A stretch of 63,919 bases of DNA, the filler included, from Klebsormidium nitens (lineage: Eukaryota > Plantae > Klebsormidiophyceae), in assembly GCA_000708835.1 (NCBI GenBank). It is 6 parts of 6 records of this genome, joined end to end, with 100 filler letters (N's around TTAATTAATTAA, not from the genome) between each part and the next. Parts side by side here need not be neighbours in the genome. Positions count along the whole stretch, not along the records: positions 55,003 to 57,693 come from DF238650.1; 5 more parts are not named here. One strand, written 5' to 3'. The position numbers and the translations under genes are program-made. The notes under the pieces are model-generated. The model was not told the origin of the DNA. It did not search any database and worked only from the letters and a program-made list of their open reading frames with translations. This document shows, piece after piece, positions 49,680-63,919 of the stretch; within the stretch, counting starts at the first letter, position 1, and each line of letters starts with the position of its first letter.

Positions 49680-51013
49680 TTTTTTTTTTTTTTTTTTTGG
49701 GTATAACCATCTGGCACGTGCAGCTCATCAGCTAGAGTCTGCAGACTAGCATACGCCTCAAAGGCTGAGAAGATCGAATCTATATGTCTGAGGGAGGCTC
49801 GGTGCGGCGGCGTTTTGTCTGATGGGCGTCGGTGCCGAAGGCGAGCTGCGATTGAGAACGCCGATGAAAAGCACGCGTGGGAAGTTGAGACTGATCTGGC
49901 AGAGTTGAAGTGAGAGGGGGCCGCTCCGAGTGTCGAGCATGTGCGCTAATTGCTTGAGCAACAGAAGAGCGGGAGGTGAAAAGAGAATCGAAAGCTTGCT
50001 TGTTGAGATAACAGACGAGACGATGCAGCAGGAGCAACAAGAAGGGCATCATAATGATTGCCTGAAAAGGAAATATGCGCAACGTCTTGTGTGCCGCGAG
50101 GTGCTGACGGAAGAAAATTGACTAACGGGATGAGTATGGCGCCAGTCTGTGCGCCCCAAATGAGAAGAGGGACACGCAGGAGACGTGCGCATACAAAAGC
50201 TTCTACCTCGGTTCCCCAAGCGGAAGTGGATGACATGTATGCAGAATAGTGGTCGGATGTGGGAAACGGCTCATCTAATGATGAAGCGAACTGAGGAGCG
50301 TCACTGTGAACCGCATTCAGTTGATGAGTGTAAGTATGCCAATCTGAAACTATGGCATGCACACAGAACTGCCTAAGATGAGTGTGAGTAAGGTCAACCT
50401 GCCGAGCAGCACGGAGGAGTGCGCGGAAGAGGCAACTACCATCACCAATAACTGGCGATATACGGAGTCGGCCTGAGAATATGGGGTCAGCAGTTTGGAA
50501 AACGGAGAGAGGATCAGATGGGCAAGATTGGGGTACTGGGGACAAAGCGGGAAAAGCTGAAGGCGTAACTGGTCGCTGTTGTGGGGGTTGTGGCATGGTG
50601 GAGGTTGCAGGACTGATTTGTAGTTGACGCCATTTGGATGCAAAAGCGATAAAATCATCTTCCGTCATTTCATGAAGGGGTTTGAGTGTTGGAAAAGCAA
50701 GAAGACGGTCTCTGAAGAGATAATGGCGTTCCTTAATAACCTTACACCGTGTTTGCCAAAGAAGCTGATGGAAACGAACAATCATCGAGTGAAGAGCCTT
50801 TCCAATGCGAAGCGCAGTAGTGGGAGTGGCAGTGCGTGGTGTTAACCAGTGATAGAAAGACAAAGATAGCTGTCCTGCTGAACAATCGCGCTGGAGGATA
50901 GAAGGCGGCGAAACGAACTGCCTACTGCTCGCGTTACGCGTATATTCCCTTACGCTTTCTTGACCAGTCCAACCATACTGCTTGCACGCAAATTGCCGGA
51001 CGTCAGACGGCAT
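49680..51013 (-). mobile_element. 5'-truncated non-LTR retrotransposon-like 3' end encoding an OTU cysteine protease, with poly(A) tail
   Basis: ORF 51013-49946 contains HQLLWQTRCK (LINE ORF2 C-terminus-like), a P/S linker, then the OTU motifs GDGSCLFRA, WGTEVE and HYDAL. A 19-nt T run at 49680-49698 is poly(A) on the minus strand, ~250 nt after the stop. Confidence 0.6.
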
Positions 51014-52280: not shown

Positions 52281-53768
52281 CTATCTGAGTGGGGATGATG
52301 TTTGAGTGAACCATAACCAAGATCTATCTTCCACATAAAGTAATTCTGAGTTGCGATTGTTGAACAAAGAGCGTGCGTGCGCCACAAATCCGCATTCACT
52401 TGTCACCCACATGTCTTCATTATCTTGTAACACGCCATCTTGATAGACGAACCCCACATGACATTTAAAGTGCTGCACCTTTCCAGGCAGAACAAGAGCC
52501 TTTGGAGGCCAAATTGACTCCCAGTCTATTCTAGTGTAGTATTGAAAAGGGTCTTCGTCGTGCGTTGTCCAAACCTCCAACTCATTTTTTCCAGCACTGC
52601 TGCACCTTTCTTCTGCACACAATATGTTGTGTCGATGCAACAGTATCTGGTCCGACCACTTGGCACACTCGTAGAACCTGGTTATGTTTCCGGGCTGAGG
52701 CAACACAAGGAACTCATCAATATCCACGACAAGGACACGTATGTTTTCACCCCACATGTCCAAAAGAGCGTGGTTGTATAAGAACACTTGTTCGTAGTAT
52801 CGTAGTCTGGGTTGTGGTGCATACCTTGGGAGTGCATCCCAAACTACAATCCGCAGCTTGCCTGCAAGAACCAACTTCACAATGTCTTGGTCTTTGAGGA
52901 GCTCACAGGCGTAGTGATGTTGGACATAGATACTGCCGCCTAAGACACCCATCCGCAAATGATGCCGGATGCTCTGCACAACCAGCCTTGCGGCTGCCGA
53001 GAAACTCCTTTGTGGGGGAAAGAAAAGAAAGCCTTTCCATGCCACCCAAGTTGCCGAGGACCTCTCTTGCATTTGAAACAACAAGAGGGGTCTGAAAAGA
53101 ACGCTCCTGAACACGTGAAAGCGAGGCCAGTTATCCACATGGATCTCAGGCACTTGTCCTACCATCTCCAAGGGCAGATCCAGCCAGAAATAAAAGGGGA
53201 GCCGCTCTCTCTCAGGTCCTAACTGCAGTTTTGTGGTTGGGTACACTGTCTCATGGATCCCATAGCGACAGCGAATTTCTATTTGAGGTTCCCACACTCT
53301 GGCTAGCGGGGGCTGCAAAAGGTGTGTATTGAACATCTCAAATGGCCCCGTTGTCTCCGAGAAGCCCCACCCGTAGCAAGCAATGAGAGGGTCCTCCGAG
53401 TCTTCTCGCATCTGCAGCACGCACTTGACAAACAGGTGCAGCATGATGTCAGCTACTTCACTCGAATTGGTTGACTTAATTTGCCCTGGGAATATGTAGT
53501 GGTCAACCGTTGTGTCAGAATTGGCAAGCAAATACTGCTTGTGTAGCTTGCTGGTGTTCCAGGGATTATGACGGCATGCCTGACCAACCCGGACCGTGGC
53601 ATTGCTGGCTGTCCTCTTGTGAGAAGCCTGTAAATCAGGACGACATATGCTTCTCTGTTGTAGACCTACAGCAGAGTAAGGAGCAAATGTCAGTCTGCCA
53701 AGCAGGGTGATACTGAGAAACCCCAAGAAGCACAATCCCACCGGCCAGGCGCATTGTGGGCCGGGCAT
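52281..53768 (-). CDS. Intronless type-II membrane glycosyltransferase, GT92/DUF23-like (495 aa)
   Basis: N-terminal hydrophobic anchor (LCFLGFLSITLLGRLTF), then Q..LYNHALL...VLVVDIDEFL with the DxD motif and a C-terminal H-containing motif. Confidence 0.6.
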   Translation of the reverse strand: MPGPQCAWPVGLCFLGFLSITLLGRLTFAPYSAVGLQQRSICRPDLQASHKRTASNATVRVGQACRHNPWNTSKLHKQYLLANSDTTVDHYIFPGQIKSTNSSEVADIMLHLFVKCVLQMREDSEDPLIACYGWGFSETTGPFEMFNTHLLQPPLARVWEPQIEIRCRYGIHETVYPTTKLQLGPERERLPFYFWLDLPLEMVGQVPEIHVDNWPRFHVFRSVLFRPLLLFQMQERSSATWVAWKGFLFFPPQRSFSAAARLVVQSIRHHLRMGVLGGSIYVQHHYACELLKDQDIVKLVLAGKLRIVVWDALPRYAPQPRLRYYEQVFLYNHALLDMWGENIRVLVVDIDEFLVLPQPGNITRFYECAKWSDQILLHRHNILCAEERCSSAGKNELEVWTTHDEDPFQYYTRIDWESIWPPKALVLPGKVQHFKCHVGFVYQDGVLQDNEDMWVTSECGFVAHARSLFNNRNSELLYVEDRSWLWFTQTSSPLR

Positions 53769-53921
53769 CTTAATGATCGTGCCCTGCCCTTGTAGTGGAT
53801 GATCTCGGGGGAGACATCTGCGCTAGCTGATTGACACTGCGACTGGTTGGGTTGCACGTTGCATCCTTGCATGCTGTACATAACTTCGGCAAGTTTATAT
53901 ACCCGTAGTCCAACTTGATGA

Positions 53922-54172
53922 TTCCGAACGATTTTATTCCGAATTATCTCCAACAATCCGACCCGGAAATCGGATATATCTATGCTGATTGCGATAAGAT
54001 TTCGAATGTCCTCTGTTTTCACTTAAAAGCGGCTTTTTGGGCTATTTTTGGGAGTTTTACGGCTTCCCAGGGCCATTTCAGGTTTACTGTCACCTTCCGA
54101 ATTCCCACTTTCCGAATGAGAAATCTGAATTTCTGACTTTCCGAAAGCATATAATTATATAATTATTCGGAA
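53922..54172. repeat. Cluster of TTCCGAA motifs, possibly a transposon subterminal region
   Basis: ttccgaa at 53922, 53937, 54095, 54110 and 54139; reverse copy ttcggaa at 54166. Confidence 0.55.
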
Positions 54173-55402
54173 CCATCACGTTGGACTGCCGTACGGGTAG
54201 CTTGGGTTTTGGCATGCCATTTTCTAATTGCTGTAGCGTTCATAGTGCGCGCGAGCGTACGCGTAATTGAAAATGGCGAAGCCACCGATATGCTGTCGTA
54301 CAAGGCCGCTGTACGACGTCGGGAAGTTTTGGGCGACCGTGTGTTCAAATTCTTGAGGTTTGGGTACGCTTTTTGGACCTAAGAAGTCCGCCGATCCTGT
54401 GCTGTACGGGGATACCGGGGGGCAGTGTTAAGCGTAACTTTTTCGATTGGGTGCCCTTGGACGCCCTAGCGGGCGTGATTGGGCGCCCCGTGGGCGCCCT
54501 GGTCGCCGTAACTGGGCGTCCGAAGGCGCCTTGATGGGGCGTCCGAACCCCCCCGGGCGTTGTTCATGATTAGCCCGGCCGCCACACAGGGGAGTCGGGA
54601 CTAGCTATATTAACCGCGCCACCCATCAAAGAAGCGCTGGGGGTACATTCTATGTAAATCCGATTAAGCCGGCCATGTAGCGTGTCGCACGAACCTATAG
54701 CCCTCGGCAGAACGCCCTCTTTACAGCTCGTATTTAAAGGAGGATTGTGCTGTTGATAGCCACCCAATTCAATCATGTGTGCTGCCCAAGAGTCACCCCC
54801 TCGCGGACAGTGCCACTTCGTCATCCCCTGCTGTACGCGAGCCCGCGCGCGCGCGGAAGGAGTTTCGCGCGGCGGCCGGCGACCGAGAAGATATTTGGGT
54901 GGNNNNNNNNNNNNNNNNNNNNNNNNNNNNNNNNNNNNNNNNNNNNTTAATTAATTAANNNNNNNNNNNNNNNNNNNNNNNNNNNNNNNNNNNNNNNNNN
55001 NNCATATGTTGTCTCTCTGAGATGAGAAGACTGTCATAGAAAGAGTTCAGAACTGATTGCGGACGTTGTATGGCTCATTCAAGCTGTGGGATGGTCATGC
55101 ATGTCTCAGCTGGCTAAACTTGAGCCCGAAAAAGTCTGAATCTGGGTTCAAGAAGCCGTCAGCATGCGAGAATCTGCTTTTCTGGCCACCTGTCCATGTA
55201 TGCCCGCAGGTCTATCTCAGTACGTAACGAGCTTCTGGGCTGATACTAATTGCTTCAGCCCTCGGCGTGCTCTAGACATTCTGGGCTTTATTCAACCGTT
55301 CTAGGGCATGCTTCTGCTCACGCAATGTGTTCTTGTAAACACGACTACAGCCGTATGTCTTCTGGCTCTGAGATCGAAGTCTTATCTTGTTCTTCCGTGC
55401 AG

Positions 55403-57693
55403 GGGCTCGCAGACTGTACCTTTCGGACCTCCTCGTCCGGTCGAAGGACCCCAGCCGACTCTCCCAACAGCGGTCTTGGAGCGCGTCAAGGCGTGTGTGG
55501 CTGCCACGGGCGACACTGCCTCCCGCTTCGATCGCCTCAAGATGGGCGACAGCGGGCCAATCTACGTCTTCCGGGTGGCCGGCCCGCGTGGCTGCCCGTA
55601 CGGCAACCACCACGACGGCCATAACAACTTCAGCGTGCTCGTGCGCAAGAGGGACTTGCTCTATTGTTGCAACAGCTCGGAGTGCCAGGGGGTCCGCCCC
55701 CTGCTCAAGATCGGGGAGCTCACGCGCTCGGAGGCGGTGACTGGAGGCGAGACTCGGGCTTTCAGCGCCGATGACGTCAGCGCGATCAACGGCCTTCATA
55801 AGACATTCGTGGACGCCTGGGCCTTCGAGGGAGACGTGGGCGGCAGCAAGATCGTCGCCGAGATGTACGCAAGCTGCAGCAGGTGAGCCATTTACGAGGC
55901 ACACAAGAAGTCACTGAAGCAAGACGTTTAGAGGATCTTTCAGAACGTCGACGGCTCTTGGACAGCATACGGCAGCTCTGGAACGGATCTCTCGGTAGTG
56001 GTCTGTCAACGGCGGTCTGATGTCATCTGAGAGGGTCCGATCTTAGCGTGTGTCCAAGTGTGCAAGGTCTACCACAATTTTCTCCGCGACCAACAATTGC
56101 TGACGTCATCGAAGATTTTCGGCCAGTCTCCGGTTGTTCGGGTGTCCAAGGGCCATTGCACACTTTTCGCGGCGGCCGGATGCTGACGTCATCATCGTGC
56201 TCTGAGGCCGTGCTGGAAACACTTTCAACCGCTGAACTTTTGTGGACACGAAAACTGGCAACGCAGAAATGATAGACCCTCTACGAACGCTGTCGAGACT
56301 CGTGTGAATCAAGATCCCACTTTTATTAGAAGAGCATATCGTATATCTGCTCTTCTGCAGGCTGCGTTTCGATGGAGAAAGCTGGTGGTATTGGAATGGA
56401 AGGCGCTTCGTGCGCGACGAGAAGAGCGCCTTCTATGTGAAGAACGTGCTCATCAATCAGCTCAGGACCGTCTACGCGCGGGTGAGGGACGAGTGGAAGG
56501 CATCTATCGAGAGGACCACCGACGAGAAGGAGCAAGAGGCGTTGACGGAGCAGCTCAAGCGTCTGCGCACCTACAACAACAGCCGAGAGATCACCAGTAC
56601 GCTGGAACTCCTCCGCGGGGAGTTGGTCGATTTCGTCTTTGCTCAGCAGCTGGATGCAGATCCGGACATCTTGAACGTGAAAAATGGAGTGCTCCTTCTG
56701 AGGACTGGCGAGCTCGATGTGCACCGGCCCCAGTACTTCTGCTCCAAGATCACGGAGACGGACTTCATGGTAAGCTTCACATGCCGATTTAAAGAGACCC
56801 GAGCAACTTGCTTCTTTGACTAGCTAACACGCAACGAGAGCTGGCGGACCGTTCAGGGAAGATGCTTTCTGACTGTTCACAAGAATCCGAGCGTTGCCAG
56901 TTGCACGCGGGCTTTGCCATTGAATCCTCTGAAAGCTTCCGAGTCATGTGTTTCCGTCTTGGCACTAGTGTGCATTCTTTAGGATGCCTGAAGACGTGCT
57001 GATGCCATTTCTCTTCCGCTCAGAGAGGCAAGGAGTTGACTCGTTCCATCCATCAAGTGTGCCGATCAATTCTTGCAGGGGATGGAGTACCCCACTCCGC
57101 GCATGGACGCCTTTATAGGCGACATCTTCAACCACGACGCTGAGCTGGTCGACTACGTACGGAAGCTGTTCGGCTACGCCCTCAACGGCCATACGCGGGA
57201 GGAGGTCTTTGTGCTCTTGCTCGGAAAGGGAGGTAAAGTCACAAACTTTTTTGTCTCGGATCCAAGACTTAAAGGAACTGTGCAAGTGAAAATCCAGGGA
57301 GTTCTAGATGCCTCCAATCTTACATTGAGGTACGTGCTTCTCCAGCGCCGTGGGCGTCGGAGCTGGCGATGTGGGAAAGAAGTCGATCAATCATGGCTCC
57401 TACATATTGGCCTAGCAATTCACATGATTCCACAAGCTGGTCTTCAGCATCAACCCACATGGACGAGCCGCGGTTGCTTCTCGGTGGGGCCGATCCAACA
57501 CTCATTATTGCCGATACTTCAACCTGATCTTTTGCCTTGATCCTTCTGCAGGAAATGGAAAGGGTGCCCTGAAGGAGATGTTGCAAGCTGTGGCCGGCGA
57601 TTACTATGGCACCATGTCCAAGGACGCGGTCGTTACGGCACCTGGCCAGAGGGCCCCCTCTAAGAACGCGCCTACAAACTACCTTTACGAGTT
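55403..57693 (+). CDS. Virus-type D5-like primase-helicase (Zn-binding domain + D5_N + SF3 helicase start), spliced, truncated by gaps
   Basis: Exons: 55403-55882 (CPYGNHHDGHNN...YCCNSSEC), 56361-56769 (WWYWNGRRF...LDADPDILNVKNGVLLLRTGEL..H.P....SKIT), 57079-57232 (YVRKLFGYALNG..REEVFVLLLGKG), 57552-57693 (GNGKG...). Phases 2/0/1 match, and splicing reconstitutes Walker A GKGGNGK. Confidence 0.8.
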
Positions 57694-57793
57694 NNNNNNN
57701 NNNNNNNNNNNNNNNNNNNNNNNNNNNNNNNNNNNNNTTAATTAATTAANNNNNNNNNNNNNNNNNNNNNNNNNNNNNNNNNNNNNNNNNNNN

Positions 57794-58693
57794 AAACGCC
57801 AGACCTACGTGGCCAAACTCCCCGGGGGAAAGAGGACGAGGACGGATGCGGATAAGGAGCGCGCGCGAGAGTACGAGAAGACCCCGGCCAGGAAGGCGTC
57901 CAAGCTGGCCCGCAAGGAGGCGAACCCGGAGAGGTGGGCGCAGTACAGCAAGGACTCTCGCGCACGCCGCCGGGCGGCTGACCCCGAGGGGTACCTGGCG
58001 AAGGCGGCGGCAGACCAGAAGCGCTTCCGCAACCGCACGAGGCAGATCAGCTTCGAGGGGGAGGAGGGAAGCATGGAGCAGACGACCGCCGCTCAGATCA
58101 TCGAGGAGATGGACGCGTGCTGCTTCTTCTGCGGAGAGGCAGAGACCAACAGCCAGCCCCTCGGGATCGCAAGGCTGGACCAAAAGGCGGAGTGGACCAA
58201 GGACAACTGCGTCCCGTCGTGTTCGACATGCTGCAACATGCGGCGCATGGTAGACGCGAAGACGTTCGTGAAGCGCTGCGTCTTCCTCAGTGAGGTTATG
58301 GAAGGTGGCGCGCCGGAGGAATTCCCTGCTGAGCTTTTTGGCAAGTTCCCGCGCGCCGGGCAGTACGCGGTCTATGTGGGTACTGCCGACAAAAAGAAGG
58401 TTCCTTTCGAACTTACACGGGAGGAGTTTGACAAAAAAGTGCAGGAGGAGTGCTACATATGTGGCAGAGTGAACGGCATCGGGCACCATAACGGTGTGGA
58501 TCGCATCGACAGCGGCCTTGGCTATACTGCAAGCAACACGAGAGCAGCATGCGGGGACTGCAACTACATGAAGGGTTCCATGTCCCTGGCAAGCATGAAC
58601 GACAAGATCCGGGAGATCGCAAGCAGGGCTAGCATCACGTTGGCATACATCCCGGATAACCTGCCCCGTAGCACATTTCACATGCTGGGGTAG
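57794..58693 (+). CDS. Tandem HNH/endonuclease VII-like Zn nuclease of the type seen in large DNA viruses; ORF open into the upstream gap
   Basis: Two repeats of CxxC..G(I/V)xRxD....Y/W...N....CxxC: CFFC..GIARLD..WTKDNCVPSCSTCCNMR and CYIC..NGVDRIDSGLGYTASNTRAACGDCNYMKG. The N-terminus is basic. Confidence 0.7.
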   Translation, partial: KRQTYVAKLPGGKRTRTDADKERAREYEKTPARKASKLARKEANPERWAQYSKDSRARRRAADPEGYLAKAAADQKRFRNRTRQISFEGEEGSMEQTTAAQIIEEMDACCFFCGEAETNSQPLGIARLDQKAEWTKDNCVPSCSTCCNMRRMVDAKTFVKRCVFLSEVMEGGAPEEFPAELFGKFPRAGQYAVYVGTADKKKVPFELTREEFDKKVQEECYICGRVNGIGHHNGVDRIDSGLGYTASNTRAACGDCNYMKGSMSLASMNDKIREIASRASITLAYIPDNLPRSTFHMLG

Positions 58694-59019
58694 ACAAACC
58701 TCATTGCTTCGAGGTTTTGGGGTCAAATGTAGGGTAGTGCGAATATGCTTGAGGTTTTGCAGGCGACTGTAGGGTGTTGGAAAGTTGCAGGTGATTAGAA
58801 TAGGCCAGGGATCACTTGCCAAACCAGATGTAAATACTCGTCCGTGCAGAAGCTTTGTATACCCAGATTCAGAGAGTGCTAGGATGATTCAGAAACCACG
58901 GCTCTTTCAAATGAGACTTGCTTTTTGTTAGTGCTTTACACCTTTGACAGCAGAAGCTGGCCACATCCTGCTCCGTTGCGTTTTTTAAAAGCTCAAAGTT
59001 TGTGATGAGACAAACAAGC

Positions 59020-60564
59020 ATGTGCGGTATCTGGGCATATTTGCGACCATGTGACATGAGCATGCTGAAGCCATTTTTCGAGGAACTGGCACACCGTGGC
59101 CCAGACGGCTCGTCCCTGATAGTCCACAAGAGTTCAGGAGTTACACTCGGTTTCCATAGATTAGCAGTCATCAACATTGCTCCGAATGGCATGCAGCCCT
59201 TTTCAAGCTTTGGTGTTACGTCAATCTGCAACGGTGAGATATACAACTTTAAGGATCTCTACACTAGCAGTGATGATTTGAGAAGCGACGTTGAAGTCAT
59301 AAACCCCATCTTGACGACTCAAGGGAGTCTGCCAGAACGACTACGGCAACTTGATGGCGATTTCGCTTTCTTTGCAATCGTCGAAGAGACATGCAACTTC
59401 GTTGCGGCTAGAGATCCGGTTGGCGTTCGCCCCCTGTTCTATGGACGTGATGAGAGCCGTAGTGTGATTGCATTTGCAAGCGAAGCTAAAGCACTCGTGG
59501 CGATACATGAAGTGCAGACGGTAGAGGTGTTCCCTCCCAGACATTACTGGACCATGTCGGAGGGATTCCACTCGTTTACAGACATCTATGGGTATTTGAG
59601 AGCTCCGCAAATTGCCAACATGCATGAAGAGATCCGCTTGCGTTTGGAAACGGCTGTAAAGAAGCGAATAATGCATAGTGACGTTCCAGTGGCGTTGCTG
59701 TGCAGTGGCGGGTTGGATTCATCATTGATTCTGGCTATCGCATCCCAGCTCTCGATAAAGAGCCGACTGGAGGTCTTTTCAATCGAGTTACAGGGGGGCC
59801 GCAGTGCAGATGCGCTTTATGCTGGCATGATAGCGAGTCACCTAGGGGTGAAGCACACTAGAGTAGAGTTTACATTGGACGACGTTCGGAAGAGTCTTGC
59901 AGAAGTCGTACCGGTGTGTGAGACATACGATCCCAACACGATACGTGCTGCACTCCCGATGTATATTCTCGCAAGGCATATTGGACATGAGACGGCTTAC
60001 AAAGTCATCTTGAGTGGCGAAGGTGCAGATGAGGTTTTTTGTGGATACAACTATTTCCGCAATGCGTGCACTGATGAACAGTTGGCAGAGGAATCGAAGC
60101 GCCTCGTTAAGAACATTCATATGTTCGACTTGCTCCGAGCTGACAGATGTTTCGCAGCATTCGGGCTCGAGCTGCGTGTACCTTTTCTTGACATCGACCT
60201 GCTAAGGTTTGCAATGTGCATCCCAGGCCGACTTCGTGGCTTTCAAAATGGCATCGAGAAGTCGCTTCTCAGGAACTCTTTCAGAGATCTTGCCGCAGTC
60301 GAGTGTGCCAGGATCATTGACAGACAGAAAGAAAGGCTCTCGGATGGCTGCGGGTTCACGTACGTCCCCCAACTGCTAACATGGCTCGGGAATGGTGCAG
60401 GTGACCTCGGCAAAAAACTGGGCGCTGAGAGGAATGTCTACCGAGCACATTTCGAGAGCCATTTCCCAAATCATTCTCACTTGATAACAGAGAGAATACT
60501 GCCTCCATGGGTTCATGAGAGACGGACAAAGAACGAACAGCAACTAATGGCGATCACGATTTGA
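59020..60564 (+). CDS. asnB: Glutamine-hydrolysing asparagine synthetase, intronless, ~514 aa
   Basis: MCGI N-terminal nucleophile, HRGPD, GFHRLAV, CNGEIYN, DGDFAF, ARDPVGVRPLFYG, SGGLDSS, SGEGADEVFCGY, RADRCFAAFGLELRVPFLD, KERLSDG. Confidence 0.93.
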   Translation: MCGIWAYLRPCDMSMLKPFFEELAHRGPDGSSLIVHKSSGVTLGFHRLAVINIAPNGMQPFSSFGVTSICNGEIYNFKDLYTSSDDLRSDVEVINPILTTQGSLPERLRQLDGDFAFFAIVEETCNFVAARDPVGVRPLFYGRDESRSVIAFASEAKALVAIHEVQTVEVFPPRHYWTMSEGFHSFTDIYGYLRAPQIANMHEEIRLRLETAVKKRIMHSDVPVALLCSGGLDSSLILAIASQLSIKSRLEVFSIELQGGRSADALYAGMIASHLGVKHTRVEFTLDDVRKSLAEVVPVCETYDPNTIRAALPMYILARHIGHETAYKVILSGEGADEVFCGYNYFRNACTDEQLAEESKRLVKNIHMFDLLRADRCFAAFGLELRVPFLDIDLLRFAMCIPGRLRGFQNGIEKSLLRNSFRDLAAVECARIIDRQKERLSDGCGFTYVPQLLTWLGNGAGDLGKKLGAERNVYRAHFESHFPNHSHLITERILPPWVHERRTKNEQQLMAITI

Positions 60565-60927
60565 AGAATCCTCAAGAGCAAGTTGCCATTGCCATTGAGC
60601 ATTCGATCTGCAAATCAGATGCATGTGGGCACAGTTGGGGACACTACATGTTGCAACTGTTCTATCACCTTATGCTGCAGGAGCAGTGACTAAACAACTG
60701 AAGGGATTCTCGGGCCGGGCATAACATACAGAAAGATCATTACCGATTGTGAGAGCTGTGAGCGAGACCGGACATATCGTGAGCGTTGTGAGCCATAAGC
60801 AAGACCAGCCATACCTTCAATCACTANNNNNNNNNNNNNNNNNNNNNNNNNNNNNNNNNNNNNNNNNNNNTTAATTAATTAANNNNNNNNNNNNNNNNNN
60901 NNNNNNNNNNNNNNNNNNNNNNNNNNA

Positions 60928-63919
60928 TGGGTGAGCCCGCTCCGACACCGATGCTCCTCGTCGCGCTCGCGAGACCTACCGAGGTCGTCTTCGAACGGTT
61001 CGTATTGCGGGAGGGGGCGTTTCTGCGCCCACCCTGGAAGCGGGTAGCAGCCCAGCTCTCGTTGCTCCCGACCGTAGGGATGATCCGCAGGGAGAGGCCC
61101 TGGCTCCGACCCGTCTGGCTTGAGACCAAGTCTGTCGTTCAGCAACGTCCTCTTAGGCGGGAGCAGAGCGTACTCGTGCGGTGCGGGAGGGGAAAGGTTT
61201 TCGACCGCCGGGAGGAGCGCGTTCGCCCGGGCTGCCCAGAAGTCGAAGGCCTGCTGCTGCTCGACGGTCAGACGCAGACATCTCGCCCAAGCCAGACGCA
61301 GACATCGAGGCCTTCGATGGCCGACAACGCCCACCCCGCCCGCCCAACCCCGAGTCCCACGGCTCCACGTCCAAAGAGCGTCAACCGGTAGAGATGATGT
61401 AGCGTCGGATAGAAAAAGCGAGGGTAGCGGTCGCCGTAGTGGTCCAGCAGCCGGCGCAGGATTGGAGAGTGCTCTGCTAGCACGACCCTGTCGTCGTCGT
61501 TTGCGGCTCCCCCGAGGAGCAGCTTGCGGACCACACTCAGAGCCTTCCCATGCTGGATGAGGTTGGAATCGTCCGAGACCGAGTGCGGCGCGCCGAGAGT
61601 GTAGAGCAGCTCCGCCCATCTGCTGGGGCAGTGCAGAGGCCAGCAAGCCTCCTCTTGCATGACTTCTCTCTCGATGCCGTCGACCAGCTCGTGCCCCACT
61701 TTGTTCTTCGAACGCATCTGGCCGACCTGGTCCGCCCGGACCCACCGGCGCCATTGCAGGAGGACGGGGTCCGCGTCGGCATCATCCGGGTCCGGAACGA
61801 AGTCTGTGACAACTTGCACGTCGTCTCTATCGAGCGCGACCTGCACAGAAAGACGCCGTGCTTGAGCAAACGGATGCCTGAACTGTTGTCGATTTGCTTG
61901 CTTGGAAAAGAGGATTGATACATTTGTACAAGTCGGATAGCTTATCATACACATAGCGGCTCGATTTCAGATCGAAACTCACCAGAAGCTCCTCGTATTC
62001 TCGAGAGCTAAGAGCCTTTCCCAGCTCCGGGTCAGCAGCGTGGTGAACACTGTACCGCGCTATAAGCGTCCGGATCTCCGGTTGCTGCATAAAACGCCTT
62101 TTTAGGCCTCCACCGGAAAGAGACGCCGCGCAGTAGTTGCTTCCAGCCTCCATGACCTTCCGCACGTTGACTCCGTCCGAGCCTCGACTAGGTGCCGTGA
62201 ACGGTCGGAGCTGAGCGGCATCCGTTCCAGCCAGACCGCCCTTCTGACGCGTGCCGTCAGCGCAGGCAAGCCCGACAATGCCGTCGCACAGGAGTACCTA
62301 GTGTTCACAAGAAAATGATCACGCTCGTCAATGTGATCTGCCTAAGAAAACCTCGTCTCTGTTTGGTCGCGTTAGTAGCAAAAGGCGGTCAAACAATGGA
62401 GAACGCGGTCGAACAATGAGAAACGAGCCTTCATATATCGCCTCCATGGAAGTGTCTCCGCACATACCTCTGGATGCGGGCCGCAAAGGCTGCAGCACTC
62501 CATGATCTGCCGTCCGCACAACTTGAAGAAGCCGAGGCTAGCCTTGCGCCAAGTCTCTTCTGTCAAGAGAGTTGCGCTGGGGTTGTAGAGACGCCATGCC
62601 GTACTTGCAGCTGCAACGAGTGCATTGAAAGCGGCTCCTGAGTGTTGTACGGACCGCAGCATAAACTGGCAAGCGGCTTGCGTAATGACCACCCCTCGCG
62701 TCCAGGCGTACAGACCGAGCGCCTCTCCGTTGAAGTGAACGGTGTGCTTCTTTGGGCACGCGCAGCAATAGATCCGGAGCTTGACCTGCACGAGAACATG
62801 ATACGAGCGTCGATTGTTGATTAATAGTTGGTGTTTGGTTGAAAAATCAGATTCTAGACATTGCAAGGCTTTGATTTATCCTCGACGCGCGTGCTCGGAT
62901 CCAATTGAGTGAACTCCGCATGGAAGATGTCTTCATATGCTGTCGGACACTCTTATCTTAATCAACATTTGCAAGAAGATCAAAAGGCTACAGAGCTATG
63001 CATCGTGGCGCTTACCTCCTGGGACCAACCCAAATCGTGAATTTGTGCTCTCTGCCAGAGCCCCGACCATTTGGTTCCGCAAGGTGGAGCCGATCTGGGG
63101 CACGGAGCTGAGAGGACCCCTGCAGCGCTCAGCTCCCCAAAATCCCGGGCCGTCAGCTCGCTAACTCTGACCGGGTTCCGCAGCAGCAGCACCTCGGGGT
63201 CATGGACTTGCCAAGAATCCGTTGGGCGAACGAGCTTGGGCACCTCCAGCTGAACGCCCTCAGCATCCATGGGCAGGACCGCTGCAATACCGCTGGATGC
63301 ACCATGTGTGCACGTGCTGGAGGGGCACGCGCAGGCGTTACACACCGGGATGAGAAACGGTGCTTGATCATCGATCCGGAGGGCGTTATCCTTACTCCGC
63401 CCCGTCCCCTCCAGGGGAACCCCATCTGCATCCGGCTCGACCTCCTCCATACTGCCTCTTGCAGCATCTAGCTGCTCCATCTCTGCATGCTCCGAGTTAG
63501 CCGCCTAGTGTGATTTGCCCCTCCGTTTGATCGATCTCGCGGCTGTTCCAGCAACCTCACCGGAACTTCCTGTTTGCCCCGATCGATCTCGCTTTCCGTT
63601 CGTTTGTGCAGAAGTGCAACACCTTGCCATACAGGGTTCTCCATCGGGGGTAATGCCTCCGAACGCCCTCGGATGCTGCTTGCAGAAGCAGTTCTCCCTT
63701 GCACATGCAGCCCTCTCATGGCTCCCAACAACCAGCTCCGCGAGGTATCTGTCCACGTCGGAGTCTGCAGTTCCCAGCCCGTCGTGGGCGACATTCCCTC
63801 TCCAACTATCTGCCAGCCCCGCCCTCAAAGACGTCACCGCCAGCCCGAGCTGGCTCTCCGAGAACACACTCTTGCTCAGTTTGACCGCACTGCCCGGTCG
63901 ACCCAAAGCTCCCTTCACC
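60928..63919 (-). pseudogene. Degenerate spliced KDZ (Kyakuja-Dileera-Zisupton)-type transposase gene with CxC clusters
   Basis: Exons: ...-63016 (PCPRSAPPCGTKW), 62785-62468 (IYCCACPKKHTVHFNGEALGLYAW...CSLCGPHPE), 62297-61953 (VLLCDG), 61840-... The ELGCYPLPGWAQKRPLPQYEPFEDD...C motif precedes the gap. There is an in-frame TAG at 63505-63507 and a frame switch near 61270-61380. Confidence 0.6.

Follow-up and report, generated by a model that had tools for sequence, protein, structure and literature searches.

Bodo saltans virus carries 12 AEP-SF3 genes, 11 of them extra and related, for which autonomous mobility has been proposed (bioRxiv 10.64898/2026.10.13.758929). Mobile D5-like helicases with homing nucleases have been described as well (PMC11296320), and collaborative homing stands as a hypothesis for the AEP-SF3 genes of Polisuviricotina and Bodo saltans virus (bioRxiv 10.64898/2026.10.13.758929; PMC11296320). 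Mobility of viral primase-helicases with homing nucleases has so far been proposed from viral genomes only and is untried experimentally. Spliceosomal introns of viral genes are already on record, so that a further case comes as less of a surprise: the giant endogenous viral elements (GEVEs) of Chlamydomonas, punuivirus included, bear canonical GT-AG introns that are processed by the host (PMC9693826, PMC13692296), and mirusviruses are intron-rich, introns being present in some free large DNA viruses too (PMC12768974). Endogenous virophages and Polinton-like viruses have been treated as intronless (PMC10120064), and surveys made with prokaryotic gene callers, in which introns are ignored, miss spliced families (PMC10120064, bioRxiv 2025.04.19.649669). 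For the genus studied here, NCLDV core genes were reported in K. flaccidum, in a table whose row seems to leave D5 blank (PMC5294986). The compared literature also includes PMC11244446 and bioRxiv 2026.07.28.741278.

The window, that is the whole stretch of 63,919 nucleotides of Klebsormidium nitens DNA analysed here, consists of 6 joined parts of 6 records with 100-N filler between them; neighbouring parts need not be genomic neighbours, and positions 55003-57693 come from DF238650.1. The gene at 55403-57693 encodes a D5_N domain followed by an SF3 helicase with its Walker A motif, is interrupted by three introns and has many relatives in the same alga. Sequence comparison supports its being a gene of eukaryotic-virus type that gained spliceosomal introns. 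The features of the locus are the following.

54903..55002, no strand: upstream gap, unsized (N run), which may hold the Prim-Pol exon or exons
55003..55402, plus strand: stretch without homology, with a pyrimidine-rich tract and AG at its end; 48% GC against 65% in block 1
55403..55882, plus strand: coding block 1; linker, Cys-His-Cys-Cys zinc-finger-like domain and start of the D5_N helical region
55883..56360, plus strand: intron 1, 478 nt, GT-AG, phase 2
56361..56769, plus strand: coding block 2; D5_N domain (Pfam PF08706, E 1e-18)
56770..57078, plus strand: intron 2, 309 nt, GT-AG, phase 0
57079..57232, plus strand: coding block 3; SF3 helicase start through the first half of Walker A
57233..57551, plus strand: intron 3, 319 nt, GT-AG, phase 1, within Walker A
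57552..57693, plus strand: coding block 4; begins with the rest of Walker A (its second half) and is cut short by the gap
57694..57793, no strand: gap, unsized (N run) after block 4
57794..58693, plus strand: HNH-like endonuclease reading frame, 5'-truncated and uninterrupted, belonging to a giant-virus family; a candidate for a partner gene

Structure and splicing of the gene

The three introns begin with GT at 55883, 56770 and 57233, end with AG at 56360, 57078 and 57551, and have agreeing phases (2/0/1). Joining of the four blocks gives a product of 394 residues with no stops, which is 94% identical over 348 residues, spanning all three junctions, to an independently annotated paralogue (P0001). 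The tblastn piece covering block 3 shows 87% identity to this paralogue and all 47 residues of block 4 are identical to it. Read through without splicing, block 1 reaches a stop at residue 160, and all three introns contain stops in every one of the three frames. The GC content is 56-65% in the exons and 49-51% in the introns. The Walker A loop is complete only once 57233-57551 is removed, intron 3 splitting a Gly codon. The initial annotation had proposed four exons with clean GT-AG sites and matching phases, a P-loop that exists only after splicing and a D5_N domain; the open frame and the identity to the paralogue uphold the first, the split codon the second and the Pfam match the third. 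An Rfam scan of 53800-59100 returned no families at E<=1 and hence no sign of self-splicing introns; introns of groups I and II are rejected on this result together with the GT-AG ends.

Transcript evidence was taken from contigs of four likely-RNA runs belonging to two studies, the RNA nature of the runs being guessed. Intron 1 is skipped exactly in contigs of three of the four runs and intron 3 in contigs of all four. The 309 nt of intron 2 are skipped with GT..AG ends in three runs, and a more divergent 309-nt joint is seen in all four. One record of 1150 nt links blocks 1, 2 and 3, with 15 differences across 412 nt of block 2. Among the 63 contigs aligned to the locus, seven are 95-99% alike and none reaches 99%; the spliced contigs, 80-97% alike, are for this reason assigned to paralogues or to another strain. 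RNA thus joins all three junctions exactly, but through contigs of related copies, and the window copy may be silent. With this evidence we consider the three spliceosomal introns of the window gene confirmed. In run X9, two contigs extend at place 57225 into the sequence of intron 3, matching the end of model P0004, which is retention of the Walker A intron in a paralogue. Intron 1 contains a duplicated unit (56050-56193), in which a motif of 12 nt includes TGACGTCA. Another motif, GC-rich, 11 nt long and placed after an E2F-like site, is found only in intron 1 and at 54863-54879, shortly before the upstream gap, an observation made post hoc that may be due to chance.

The stretch preceding block 1 (55003-55402) probably belongs to an intron lying upstream, as its 3' portion, and no joint among the contigs supports the acceptor at 55401-55402. 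A decayed primase core had tentatively been placed there, in an AEP-like stretch (N*LRTLYGSFK, about 55021-55090). This candidate is rejected: between 55021 and 55090 there is no tblastn match from the paralogues, the best stretch found with the family HMM has an E of 1.4 and a negative score, no Pfam family is detected and the hhalign probability is 0.1%. The Prim-Pol domain (PF09250) is found in paralogues, and neither paralogue tblastn nor the family HMM matched it anywhere in the window; in the window copy it is therefore either lost or inside the gap at 54903-55002. At 53901-54199 there is a MITE-like element that has TA at both ends; its terminal inverted repeats, about 31 nt long, are imperfect (84% complementary).

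A closer look at the Cys-His-Cys-Cys domain of block 1, which we take to be a zinc finger of the UL52/PrimPol type, showed that C64 and C89 are invariant and that H70 and C94 are conserved in at least 90% of a 22-row alignment. The model of the domain has a pLDDT of 84. Its fold is weakly like viral primases (E 1e-3 or weaker) and weakly like segments of the herpes helicase-primase and pox D5 (Z 4.9 and 4.2), the latter being matches that fall under the trust level of the aligner, the best Z (5.2) belonging to an unrelated protein.

A multicopy family and its relatives

At least 12 other protein clusters named K. nitens, with 38-94% identity to the window copy over the aligned parts, sit on contigs of 12 distinct sizes; five of the six matches of one search, six more of a second and one of a third account for them. 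With this copy number, which the initial annotation had left to be counted, the gene does not stand as a solitary domesticate. The full architecture of the family comprises a long acidic N-terminus, the Prim-Pol domain, the Cys-His-Cys-Cys domain, D5_N and the SF3 helicase, the long acidic extensions being missing from the outside relatives. The DxD and His motifs of Prim-Pol are intact in nine of the nine K. nitens Prim-Pol-bearing models examined. Of 346 differences, 25 of the 40 listed as best supported are synonymous, against 23% expected, and a rough pN/pS from the same 40 is 0.18, the subset not being random. The synonymous excess and the intact motifs suggest that selection acted on the protein while the family expanded.

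Many of the family models are broken, partial or exon-skipping, which, like the gaps at both ends of the contig, is expected for a repeat. A reverse-strand stretch at 52-156, in which 35 residues are 97% identical to the tail of model P0006, corresponds to another repeat joined by the model. The breaks, understood as places where a paralogue model starts, stops, skips or reads into an intron at a junction of the window copy, are exact at junction 1 in P0002, P0013 and P0096, at junction 2 in P0002, P0003, P0006 and P0007, and at junction 3 in P0004, P0007 and P0013, the last of these being 43% identical to the window copy. Sharing of intron positions is thereby borne out across subfamilies, although through gene models and transcripts and not through the genomic DNA of the paralogues. 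The nearest outside relatives are uninterrupted single reading frames of about 800 residues, several of them on contigs of 24-35 kb. Since the junctions recur in subfamilies about 50% identical and the outside relatives are uninterrupted, the introns are inferred to have been gained a single time, in the host nucleus and ahead of the expansion; as the copies kept their introns, copying likely proceeded via DNA after that gain. Three unnamed fragments (P0131, P0140 and P0191) start 6-21 residues past junction 3, which hints at a still greater age for the Walker A intron. The premise that viral genes of this type normally lack introns agrees with these nearest relatives, but introns in large DNA viruses had already been described.

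Relatives for the phylogeny were supplied by a profile search over 1.84 billion representatives, and the trees were built from the helicase region, 9 of 176 rows and 9 of 270 rows being dropped for coverage below 60%. The final IQ-TREE comprises 73 hand-picked rows, without named nucleocytovirus core D5 or Polinton-like virus references, the window row filling 46% of the columns. In this tree the family is recovered with an SH-aLRT of 97 within a clade of 37 environmental rows (89), which is joined (99) to a clade of 16 rows with virophage helicases and a gene of a 394-kb viral contig; tailed phages split off at 98. Within this row set, virophage- and giant-virus-associated helicases stand beside the family and phages apart. 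The near clade is made of unnamed environmental Prim-Pol-D5 proteins and one named member, from a fungus (Coemansia, P0062), whose model fuses RNA polymerase fragments to the Prim-Pol-D5 part; this region is possibly an endogenous giant-virus region. The 16-row sister clade includes proteins with PriCT-2, some of them with a C962R-type AEP. Two of the virophage helicase loci (L031, L097) bear Sputnik-type capsid genes. The model of one relative (P0011) has a pLDDT of 93, its top BFVD match being a D5-family protein of Bodo saltans virus and its PDB match ASFV C962R. Pattern scans for close helicase relatives, an insensitive method, found none in viral contigs, metagenomes or GTDB, and other scans gave distant loci only.

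The family carries PF09250 instead of the D5/C962R-type AEP (PF23162), which is detectable and occurs in 7 of 54 other matches; a canonical nucleocytovirus core D5 is thereby ruled out. An intronised gene of viral D5 type, as first proposed, accordingly stands as regards its viral character and its helicase, which lies on the virophage and giant-virus side, but not as regards a core-D5 primase. The source was likely a replicase associated with virophages, Polinton-like viruses or giant viruses.

The HNH-like reading frame and its surroundings

The reading frame at 57794-58693 matches Pfam HNH with an E of 0.079 and PacI with an E of 0.0019, and its Atlas clusters are all viral, mostly Nucleocytoviricota. 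Its GC3 (0.79) equals that of the helicase exons, the values for the asparagine synthase and GT92-like frames mentioned below being 0.53 and 0.55. Judged from the lengths of P0001 and P0020-P0026, the gap at 57694-57793 must hold about 220 C-terminal residues of the helicase and about 170 N-terminal residues of this frame if both genes are whole. Relatives of the HNH-like protein lie directly beside NCLDV major capsid genes in two loci, tail to tail at 9461-15234 of L001, where the capsid gene is split into two reading frames, and at 36-2617 of L003. At least one other HNH copy named K. nitens (P0021) exists, with the same starting residue at its contig edge; the two are identical at 111 of 115 positions at first and then at 91 of 184, which suggests a collapsed repeat together with module swapping. 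The contig of P0021 has no helicase match, and the linkage of helicase and HNH is seen at one locus, across the unsized gap. The idea that the HNH frame is nested inside a helicase intron is not supported, no downstream helicase exon being found in the window. No contigs from the four runs fall in 57794-60826, a result uninformative either way on expression of the HNH-like and asparagine synthase frames.

No convincing flanking repeat that could mark element ends or a target-site duplication was found at the locus. The Pfam scan of 106 reading frames and the repeat search found no recombinase, integrase, capsid, packaging ATPase or terminal inverted repeats in the window, and the same 106 frames gave no NCLDV core genes, some of which split genes or gaps could hide. 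The window contains a PsaL gene. At 59020-60564 (plus strand) there is an asparagine synthase reading frame, uninterrupted in an intron-rich genome, for which one search found no relatives and another only phage matches of 25-29%. A GT92-like frame, also uninterrupted, and an OTU protease fragment lie on the minus strand at 52281-53780 and 49946-51013, respectively, and a weak match to CxC4 (KDZ transposase-associated; E 4e-4, below the cut-off) at 62375-62875, on the same strand.

Interpretation and comparison with known systems

The explanation that we prefer, with confidence no better than even, is an intronised, virus-derived Prim-Pol/zinc-finger/D5_N/SF3 replicase family that spread as a selfish DNA element. 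By homology, the hexameric helicase is predicted to unwind the template and the Prim-Pol domain to prime and synthesise, so that a single protein could replicate the locus encoding it. The insertion site would be supplied by the neighbouring HNH nuclease or by host breaks, and the introns would have been gained once in the host nucleus, the family then expanding through DNA copying. This reading is backed by the introns, the open spliced frame, the spliced contigs of paralogues, the many copies and the position in the tree. Against it stand the lack, among the 106 frames and at the locus, of ends, target-site duplication, integrase, recombinase or capsid, the single HNH linkage across a gap with a P0021 contig devoid of helicase, and the absence of any contig at least 99% alike, which leaves the window copy possibly silent; splicing, expression and purifying selection suit a host function equally well. 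A bolder form, which we regard as unlikely, would be a new self-synthesising eukaryotic DNA transposon: a nuclear, intron-bearing Prim-Pol/SF3 replicase with an HNH homing nuclease, without capsid or integrase, derived from a virophage-like ancestor and copying into breaks made by the nuclease. It is somewhat unlikely that the gene is instead a passive relic or cargo, inserted by a Polinton-like or giant virus, intronised and then carried to more places within larger transposons or segmental duplications, with its own activity unused. The region at 45-64 kb does resemble a nest of mobile elements (OTU fragment, uninterrupted asparagine synthase, GT92-like frames, weak CxC4), NCLDV core-gene regions are reported in K. 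flaccidum (PMC5294986), the fungal near-clade member is fused in its model to RNA polymerase fragments and intron-bearing GEVE genes are known, but the synonymous excess among expressed copies, the catalytic motifs kept in all nine models and the lack of a capsid or other core viral gene in the window speak against passive carriage.

A domesticated host family, serving DNA repair, repriming, the replication of organelle DNA or interference with viruses and multiplied by ordinary gene duplication, would account for the presence of three introns of host type, for the spliced contigs of two studies, for purifying selection and the long acidic N-terminal extensions missing from outside relatives. 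We hold it to be quite unlikely in view of the number of loci (at least 13), whose duplications are nested and in part recent, the many truncated or frameshifted models, the short scaffolds and gaps, and the adjoining nuclease frame of giant-virus type. Between domestication and a selfish element, which had been offered side by side, the dispersed copies, broken models and shared introns lean towards the selfish element, although this is unproven. Direct horizontal acquisition of a bacterial or phage P4-type primase is highly improbable: TIGR01613 is above its cut-off for P0001, and most of the Atlas clusters that resemble P0011 best consist of proteins from tailed phages sharing its Pfam set, but the best phage identity is 27-29%, phage rows form the separate branch described above, the nearer clade, of 60 rows, includes none of 94 IMG/VR loci, two pattern sets (insensitive scans) gave no confirmed GTDB relative and the zinc finger is weakly like the primases of eukaryotic viruses.

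The P4-family Prim-Pol-D5 proteins of phages and plasmids (e.g. gp23 of Xylella phage Xfas53) share the Pfam set and TIGR01613 with the K. nitens family, but are prokaryotic, less than 30% identical and on a separate branch. Nucleocytovirus core D5 and ASFV C962R (PDB 8iqi, 9ivf; poxvirus D5/E5) have the same zinc-binding linker, D5_N and SF3 and are the best matches among solved structures; the K. nitens family differs in its PF09250 in place of PF23162, its multiple copies and an identity of about 18% in the structural alignment. With the primase-helicases of virophages and Polinton-like viruses (PMC12220804, PMC10120064) it shares D5_N and SF3, a sister position in the tree and an HNH gene often nearby, but the capsid, packaging ATPase, integrase and terminal repeats of those viruses were not found in the window. 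In Chlamydomonas GEVEs and mirusviruses the intron-bearing genes lie within whole viral genomes, whereas in K. nitens one dispersed family is present, with no viral genome seen around the window copy; in the punuivirus study the words 'primase' and 'helicase' are absent from the main text, to which this statement is confined.

Endogenous viral introns and mobile primase-helicases have thus each been described already, while no description of this spliced multicopy family was found in a literature search that covered subscription papers poorly; the D5 tree and genomic contexts supplementing PMC5294986, and the table of intron genes supplementing PMC13692296, may bear on how new it is. The mobile AEP-SF3 replicases of Polisuviricotina and Bodo saltans virus show the same combination: primase and helicase are fused, the copies are many and dispersed, neither an integrase nor flanking repeats are seen and a nuclease gene is adjacent. 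Their copies lie in viral genomes, and the available portions of those sources mention no spliceosomal introns, whereas the K. nitens family belongs to a cell genome, is spliced and is of the PF09250 type. In a streptophyte alga that can be cultured, a multicopy family that is spliced and expressed would open autonomous mobility to direct tests, and would show a path from a viral replicase to a nuclear transposon or a host gene.
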